This document shows, piece after piece, positions 58,812-59,770 of a DNA stretch of 64,000 nucleotides. Location: the NCBI RefSeq assembly GCF_000026545.1, contig NC_011601.1. The stretch is one strand, 5' to 3'. The notes under the pieces are model-generated. The model was given only the letters and a program-made list of their open reading frames with translations, had not been told where the DNA came from and did no database searches. Each line of letters starts with the position of its first letter. Within the stretch, counting starts at the first letter, position 1. The stretch comes from Escherichia coli O127:H6 str. E2348/69 (GTDB lineage Bacteria > Pseudomonadota > Gammaproteobacteria > Enterobacterales > Enterobacteriaceae). Made by a program: the position numbers and the translations under genes.

Positions 58812-58840
58812 GCAAAGAAAACCCGGCGCTGAGGCCGGGG
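58812..58840 (-). terminator. intrinsic terminator after the cI-moron transcription unit (tImm-like)
   Basis: Minus-strand hairpin cccggc-ctcagc-gccggg followed by ttttcttt, just past the stop of the 280-aa gene. Confidence 0.7.
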
Positions 58841-58847
58841 TATGCAT

Positions 58848-59690
58848 TTATGGTTTTTTTTGGTCGTGCTTTGCTAGGGCTTTATGAGTTTTCTTAATGC
58901 TGCTTCTAACTTTCTGAATTTTTTCTTGGGAAAGTTTTATGTTTTCAGGGGCTGTTCCAGTGTTAGAAATCATTACATTGCGAACAGATCTCCCTACGGT
59001 CTCAGCAGCATTCTCTAGTTGAGACTGTCCCTTCAGGTTCTGGTTTCTGATTCTTGCTTCTGTCTGTGTAATTCTGAATATATTGGCCGCGAGCTCTTCG
59101 CTTCCCATGAAGTCAAGCATCGTTCCATCTTTTTTAGTTAGGCCTTTTCGAGCTTTCAACTGTGAGAGATTCATATTGTACATCCCACGGTAGCCCGCAT
59201 TTTGAAATAGACCATAGTCGACTACTCCGTGTTTATGGGCTACATGACTGAGAGTTTTCTCTCTAGATGTAATCTCGCCACGCAAATAAACTCGATTAAC
59301 TGCGTCATGGTTATGATATGTAGTGTGTATTTCTGCTGCGAGCCCAGCAAAATAAGCTTGTGCATTTGCAACTTTTTGATTGCTGATGTCACCATTCATT
59401 ACAATCAGATAACAAGCGAAACGAGTTAATTTAAAGTCATTTTTCGCATTTTCTGAAGGCATCTGGATGAAGTTATCGTATACAGGGATATCGAGGCTCA
59501 CACATACAGATGTAGCTTTGTTAATGGCTTTCAATATCTGATCCATGCCATTATATCCAAGCATCATCGCTAAATCAGATGCAAACCAATAGGTAACACC
59601 GTTTTCTCTAGCGAAATCATCAAATGTTAACTGTGATGTGTCATCGAAAACAGTAATTTGCCTACTCATATCACACCCGAACTTACTCAT
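58848..59690 (-). CDS. Bro-N-domain / DinD-like protein in the rexAB slot (candidate abortive-infection or exclusion protein)
   Basis: 280 aa; N-terminal ITVFDDTSQLTFDDFARENGVTYWFASDLAMMLGY fits the Bro-N pattern; about 40% GC; RBS aaggga; co-oriented 80 bp downstream of cI. Confidence 0.7.
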   Translation of the reverse strand: MSKFGCDMSRQITVFDDTSQLTFDDFARENGVTYWFASDLAMMLGYNGMDQILKAINKATSVCVSLDIPVYDNFIQMPSENAKNDFKLTRFACYLIVMNGDISNQKVANAQAYFAGLAAEIHTTYHNHDAVNRVYLRGEITSREKTLSHVAHKHGVVDYGLFQNAGYRGMYNMNLSQLKARKGLTKKDGTMLDFMGSEELAANIFRITQTEARIRNQNLKGQSQLENAAETVGRSVRNVMISNTGTAPENIKLSQEKIQKVRSSIKKTHKALAKHDQKKP

Positions 59691-59770
59691 CGATTTTCCC
59701 TTATATTAATATAATGTGGATAGTTTGTCGCCAACTCGCTAAAGTTATTCATTATGAGGTTTGCCATCCA

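Follow-up and report, generated by a model that had tools for sequence, protein, structure and literature searches.

A DinD-family gene behind the repressor of a lambdoid prophage in Escherichia coli E2348/69, a candidate for prophage-encoded superinfection exclusion

The window analysed here is a stretch of 64,000 nucleotides (nt) from Escherichia coli O127:H6 str. E2348/69, an EPEC strain (contig NC_011601.1), in which positions 3717-51400 are chromosomal backbone and a lambdoid prophage starts at ~51.5 kb, with its integrase beside torS. Between the cI-like repressor gene of this prophage and its pL/N region lies a single gene for a protein of 280 amino acids (aa), a relative of DinD. A co-oriented gene with its own ribosome-binding site (RBS) had been described at this place in an earlier note made from the sequence alone, and the open reading frame (ORF) list, the sequence and the annotation agree that it is there. 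The slot and its borders, all on the minus strand, consist of the following features.

58848..59690, minus strand: the 280-aa DinD-family gene, stop codon included (ORF list, ATG start; RefSeq WP_000032717.1, 'BRO family protein')
59702..59698, minus strand: its RBS, AAGGG, 7 nt ahead of the ATG, read from the sequence
59691..59770, minus strand: the 80-nt spacer from the cI stop codon to the DinD-like start codon, part of the swappable cargo
59771..60466, minus strand: the cI-like LexA-family repressor gene (helix-turn-helix and S24 peptidase), co-oriented with the DinD-like gene
58812..58839, minus strand: an intrinsic-terminator-like hairpin and T-run, the hairpin at 58839..58822 having six G-C pairs
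58628..58600, minus strand: a pL-like promoter, TTGACC-17-TACTAT, from a consensus scan
58627..58676, minus strand: operator-like inverted repeats overlapping the pL-like promoter
58137..58409, minus strand: the N antitermination peptide gene, downstream edge of the slot (annotated by RefSeq in the identical sequence of E2348/69)

The repressor starts at 60430 according to the earlier note and a Yersinia homologue, or at 60466 according to RefSeq. The GC content of the DinD-like gene is 0.397, close to the 40% given before, and the 50% then quoted for its surroundings is the average of the window (0.500); the nearest neighbour, cI, has 0.461. An identical (100%) copy of the gene is carried by nine of 5,426 complete E. 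coli genomes, E2348/69 among them. Homologues are far more numerous, with more than 2,393 in a 90%-clustered protein database and 533 clusters at E<=1e-30 in a 50%-clustered library, and identity remains at ~50% across phyla in the homologue alignment. Compared with homologues of 95% protein identity, the ratio of nonsynonymous to synonymous substitution (dN/dS) is 0.014-0.019 at a dS of 1.2-1.9, where synonymous sites are near saturation. The number of homologues together with this ratio indicates that the ORF is a real gene.

Comparison with related phages revealed that the cargo has been inserted cleanly between cI and a shared terminator. About 170 lambdoid and Shiga toxin (Stx) phages match the flanks at 96-99% identity and lack the DinD-like gene. 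In pairwise comparisons with phages carrying the same cI (96-99% identical to that of the window), similarity ends at the cI stop codon (59769-59773), and for phages 2B8, 2G7b, ev017 and Stx2-1717 it restarts at 58839-58860, level with the hairpin or slightly upstream of it. Since phages with other cargo rejoin at this point, the terminator is a backbone element, the counterpart of the immunity-region terminator of lambda. Thus the terminator assigned earlier to the DinD-like gene does exist, as the hairpin at 58839..58822 followed by TTTTCTTT, but it is common to the phages with other cargo and not the gene's own. In the four phages the slot holds an NYN-domain protein (2B8, L018:553-1410), a 283-aa hypothetical protein (2G7b, L019:1073-1924), a DUF1828 protein and a partner with weak matches to the PADLOC candidate PDC-M24 A/B (ev017, L020:548-1854) or a 173-aa hypothetical protein (Stx2-1717, L021:840-1361). 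Owen et al. call the cI-pL region a known hotspot, occupied by rexAB in lambda and by bstA in Salmonella phage BTP1 (PMC8585504), and annotation and the BTP1 comparison confirm that the DinD-like gene fills this same slot, as the earlier note had proposed.

The association of such genes with repressors extends well beyond this prophage. In IMG/VR, 500 viral contigs were found to code for a relative of the 280-aa protein, and linkage was counted in the best 80 of them. Of the 76 contigs with at least 900 nt of upstream sequence, 67 have a same-strand cI-like ORF that ends within 1.5 kb upstream (median gap 126 nt); a hairpin and T-run lay within 120 nt downstream in 58 of 79 viral contigs. At 50% identity the linked repressors make up 22 clusters (8 at 30%), in contrast to a single cluster at 50% for the DinD-like proteins. 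Pasteurella phage Pmp14 carries the nearest homologue among phages (66% identity), again directly behind a CI-like repressor, and the order repressor, then DinD-like gene also occurs in prophages of Yersinia, Providencia, Histophilus and Microbulbifer. Partner repressors are almost all of the S24 type, those without an S24 domain being found in Microbulbifer (L014), Yersinia (L005/L006) and L098/L099. Relatives at 47-56% identity often lie elsewhere in phage genomes. No description of the tight linkage of one DinD clade to varied prophage repressors was found in the searchable literature.

Two variant arrangements were also observed. Beyond the 67 linked cases, viral contig L054 (1880-4849) has a 350-aa ORF (2932-3984) that separates its DinD-like gene from the cI-like gene, giving two cargo genes behind the repressor. 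In the Yersinia prophages L005 and L006 (4715-5737), two small ORFs of 137 and 146 aa, neither with a Pfam match, precede the DinD-like gene in place of an S24-type repressor and may represent another type of immunity repressor.

The 280-aa protein is composed of an acidic N-terminal domain and a basic C-terminal domain, encoded as follows.

59361..59606, minus strand: Bro-N domain, codons 29-110 (Pfam PF02498), acidic
58968..59345, minus strand: conserved basic helical DinD C-domain, codons 116-241, aligned to residues 100-223 of the Deinococcus protein DdrC

Bro-N (residues 29-110, E 6.4e-8) is the sole Pfam match. The N-terminus had been described before as of Bro-N/KilA-N type; the first of these names is appropriate, and KilA-N was not matched in Pfam. 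The suggested likeness to DinD extends over the full length. E. coli K-12 DinD (PcsA) is collinear with the 280-aa protein, shares its architecture of Bro-N plus helical C-domain and is 33% identical to it (BLASTP, E 9e-44), and the NCBIfam DinD model NF008573 matches residues 22-278 with E 1.4e-58 and 198.6 bits. Because this score is below the equivalog cut-off of the model (242 bits), the 280-aa protein is, by sequence, a DinD-family relative and no DinD equivalog. Their settings also differ: DinD is a stand-alone chromosomal SOS gene, whereas the gene studied here is prophage-borne, stands behind cI and has no LexA box. The last 150 aa, in which no motif had been named before, correspond to the conserved DinD C-domain. 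In an alignment of 38 homologues, its motifs FQNxGYRGMY, LKxxKG, LDxMxxxELAANxFRxTQT and VGxxVR are exceptionally conserved.

Among defence profiles, PADLOC ranks the candidate single-gene system PDC-S13 first (model PDLC04919, E 2.1e-86); the match is nearly full length, pairing residues 17-279 with profile positions 7-280 of 281. The repressor-linked prophage context is, as far as found, outside the definition of PDC-S13. Neither a text naming PDC-S13 nor a phenotype for it was found in the searchable literature, and the preprint of Payne et al. (2024) covers Hma-embedded candidates and not PDC-S13. The protein also matches positions 14-276 of 717, the N-terminal third, of the PADLOC profile PDLC03083 for type I specificity subunits (Specificity_I). 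The presence of a DinD-like N-terminal region in that profile suggests that DinD-like modules are fused to or embedded in type I restriction-modification (R-M) loci, and DinD-domain genes embedded in such loci have been reported (PMC9881135). In addition, the protein matches PHROG 8036, which has no assigned function.

The fold of the protein was predicted with AlphaFold2 from the alignment. The model (predicted local distance difference test, pLDDT, 88.6; predicted template modelling score, pTM, 0.81) is mostly helical, with an alpha/beta domain at residues 23-98. The top Foldseek matches are six chains of DdrC (E 4e-5 to 4e-2, probability 0.97-1.00, 211-249 columns), and no match other than DdrC fell below E 0.4; DdrC is the only significant match in the Protein Data Bank (PDB) by two methods. 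A fold search of AFDB50 returned only DinD-annotated proteins and so gave no further hint of function. The fold and domain order of DdrC are also those of the 280-aa protein model, and the C-terminal 150 aa, for which the earlier note could name no motif, have a predicted DdrC-like fold. DdrC of Deinococcus radiodurans (PDB 7qvb, 7udi, 8u0g) is dimeric, compacts DNA, and binds and stabilises DNA at nicks and breaks (PMC11347143, PMC9303277). The same papers call it Deinococcus-specific and without a structural homologue, and DinD is not mentioned in them (PMC11347143, PMC9303277). Both proteins combine an acidic N-half with a basic C-half. The isoelectric point (pI) is 4.5 for the N-half (residues 1-112) and 10.0 for the C-half of the 280-aa protein, against medians of 5.0 and 9.5 in the DinD family and of 6.7 and 10.1 in the DdrC family. 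They differ in that DdrC is ~50 residues shorter, only 16-24% identical and controlled by the radiation/desiccation response.

For comparison at the sequence level, DdrC homologues were recovered via a published primer, the family was collected and 31 members were aligned. Profile-profile alignment (hhalign) of the DinD family with DdrC gave E 1.7e-4 and a probability of 49.6% over 120 columns, pairing residues 116-241 with DdrC 100-223. BLASTP against DdrC gave E 0.12, and a hidden Markov model (HMM) search of PDB chain sequences with the family profile gave no match even at E<=10. Invariant positions coincide in the alignment (280-aa protein/DdrC): R137/R121, L147/L131, G155/G139, K182/R168, G183/G169, D193/D175, E199-L200/E181-L182, F205/Y187, T210/T192 and G221/G203. 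We infer a one-residue numbering offset between two Deinococcus DdrC sequences. Mutagenesis located the main DNA-binding loop of DdrC at K158, R164 and R167 in D. radiodurans (PMC9303277), and R164/R167 of this loop align with K179/K182 in the LKARKG segment of the 280-aa protein. On the model and the profiles, remote homology of the DinD family and DdrC is likely. No description of such a relationship was found in the searchable literature.

Expression signals in the slot are few. No sigma-70 promoter was called at the threshold of the consensus scan in the 80-nt spacer, in which a weak TTGGCG-17-TATTAA can be seen by eye that would leave almost no leader. Upstream of the DinD-like gene there is no LexA box within one mismatch; the sole nearby match lies inside coding sequence and occurs at the frequency that chance predicts. 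An Rfam scan of 57.5-61.5 kb gave no relevant element. Since neither a promoter was called in the gap nor a LexA box found, read-through from the repressor promoters is the simplest model of expression. With a cargo that starts right at the stop codon of cI, a gap in which no promoter was called and a shared terminator, co-transcription with cI is plausible. In lambda, rexAB is transcribed with cI and ended by the immunity terminator.

Taken as a whole, these features point to an accessory gene whose transcription would probably start, together with that of cI, at the repressor promoters and end at the immunity terminator common to these phages; its product would accordingly be made in the lysogen. 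There, the basic C-domain may bind DNA or RecA-coated DNA intermediates, while the acidic Bro-N winged-helix domain may contact a partner protein. In the 2011 study of Uranga et al., DinD is said to act on post-synaptic RecA filaments, dismantling them, and reportedly leaves RecA filaments on single-stranded DNA (ssDNA) unaffected. If it acts on lesions or ends of DNA or on RecA-DNA intermediates, the protein could disturb how incoming phage DNA replicates or recombines in the lysogen, which would appear as superinfection exclusion. Such a role, expressed from the lysogen and directed at the replication or recombination of superinfecting phage DNA, is favoured by the record of the slot (rexAB, bstA) and by the PADLOC candidate status; argued by analogy, it is tentatively given a little less than an even chance. 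More generally, it is a reasonable hypothesis that this is a candidate defence gene, because PADLOC lists the family as candidate PDC-S13. A bolder version, in which the DinD clade linked to repressors makes up a single-gene system of prophage exclusion not described before, halting replication or recombination of superinfecting phages with a DdrC-like sensor of DNA lesions or RecA intermediates, and DdrC is a diverged member of the widespread DinD/Bro-N superfamily, is possible and on balance rather unlikely.

Its main rival is a role in tuning lysogeny and the SOS response via RecA, where the protein would limit spontaneous induction or recombination with related prophages and would not act on incoming phages at all. 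Full-length homology to DinD speaks for this role, together with the listing of DinD among RecA filament regulators (PMC4457935). The partner repressors, nearly all S24-type and RecA-cleavable, fit it too, and extreme purifying selection would suit a conserved host target such as RecA. On the other hand, linkage is also seen with repressors without an S24 domain, the score of 198.6 bits falls below the 242 bits set for DinD equivalogs, and there is no LexA box. Furthermore, the RecA-ssDNA filament, the form that drives repressor cleavage, is the one said to be unaffected by DinD. Lysogeny tuning is therefore judged unlikely, though not markedly so. A further proposal takes the DdrC resemblance at face value and regards the gene as a damage-tolerance moron, which would protect nicked or broken host DNA and improve lysogen fitness under genotoxic stress. 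In its favour are the sole significant structural match, the binding of nicks and breaks and the DNA compaction described for DdrC (PMC11347143, PMC9303277), and the family name itself, which refers to damage induction. Wiring to the repressor promoters without a LexA box, however, would have the gene active ahead of any damage and silent once the prophage is induced; exclusion genes are what the slot is otherwise noted for (PMC8585504), and a host dinD is already present in E. coli K-12, the strain considered for this point. Damage tolerance is thus held to be quite improbable.

The Bro-N domain brings a regulator into question, that is, a transcription regulator or antirepressor acting on heteroimmune prophages or host genes. 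Many phage Bro-N proteins are antirepressors or regulators, and the Pasteurella homologue is annotated as 'putative phage transcriptional regulator' (PMC10986470). The Bro-N domain here, however, is acidic, typical antirepressors join Bro-N to KilAC or other C-domains and not to the DinD C-domain, and for the phage's own immunity it would be a paradox to produce an antirepressor along with cI, so that this function appears slightly less probable even than damage tolerance. The BstA-like abortive infection raised in the earlier note, with a cognate aba self-immunity element, is regarded as very improbable. BstA resembles the present case in being a single gene directly downstream of cI, co-oriented and followed by a terminator (PMC8585504), and both are two-domain proteins with a phage-type N-terminal DNA-binding fold. 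BstA of BTP1 was recovered via the published aba sequence. BLASTP of the 280-aa protein against it gave E 1.8, and the family profile against BstA gave an hhalign probability of 0.55% over 65 columns in the N-domain only. The PADLOC BstA model, which scores 1.9e-124 on BTP1 BstA, did not match the 280-aa protein at E<=1. BstA has a KilA-N-like N-domain, whereas the 280-aa protein has Bro-N. Membership of the BstA family is ruled out on these grounds. No direct repeat of the proposed aba type flanks the start codon (59650-59770), although aba sequences are cognate and variable and their absence is unprovable from sequence. The resemblance to BstA is thus positional only. RexAB shares the cI-pL position (PMC8585504) and differs in comprising two genes, including one for a membrane protein, whereas the DinD-like slot has a single ORF for a predicted mostly helical protein of DNA-binding type. 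The 280-aa protein therefore shares the niche of BstA and RexAB and is in neither family.

Several points weigh against phage exclusion as the function of the DinD-like gene. No defence experiment on any family member was found in the searchable literature, PDC-S13 being a candidate only, and transcription with cI is inferred from the sequence. Homology to DdrC is borderline at the sequence level, with an hhalign probability of ~50%. More distant relatives stand alone in ordinary chromosomal contexts among housekeeping genes, like dinD, in a set where some contigs are short. Strong purifying selection points to a conserved target, for instance a DNA structure or RecA; conservation so extreme is unusual for arms-race proteins, and a housekeeping-like or lysogeny-tuning role fits it equally well.

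Part of this picture was already known: the gene carries an annotation, it belongs to a known if poorly understood family, its slot is a recognised hotspot and PADLOC has a candidate listing. DinD has served as an SOS reporter for decades while little is known of its biology, and the repressor-linked clade, joined to at least 22 immunity types, provides a concrete setting for tests. If exclusion is true, a DNA- or RecA-directed member would be added to the cI-N hotspot beside RexAB and BstA, and PDC-S13 would be validated. The structural link to DdrC leads to testable biochemistry (binding of nicks and breaks) and, if true, would end the status of DdrC as a protein without known relatives outside Deinococcus.

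Other features of the window deserve mention. Between pL and N, RefSeq annotates a frameshifted hypothetical pseudogene at 58387-58609, which overlaps the 5' end of N. Downstream of N, a second AT-rich stretch (57089-58078, GC 0.35-0.39) carries two co-oriented genes, one for 156 aa (PHROG 1636) and one for 122 aa (DUF2528, PHROG 646), with no PADLOC match for either. The prophage integrase (~51517-52590) abuts torS (48679-52590 region), which is annotated as frameshifted in E2348/69, and the attachment site of the prophage may lie in or beside torS. The sole exact CTGT-N8-ACAG LexA box of the window, at 16958-16973, precedes sulA by 24-39 nt and is thus the SOS box that this gene is expected to have.
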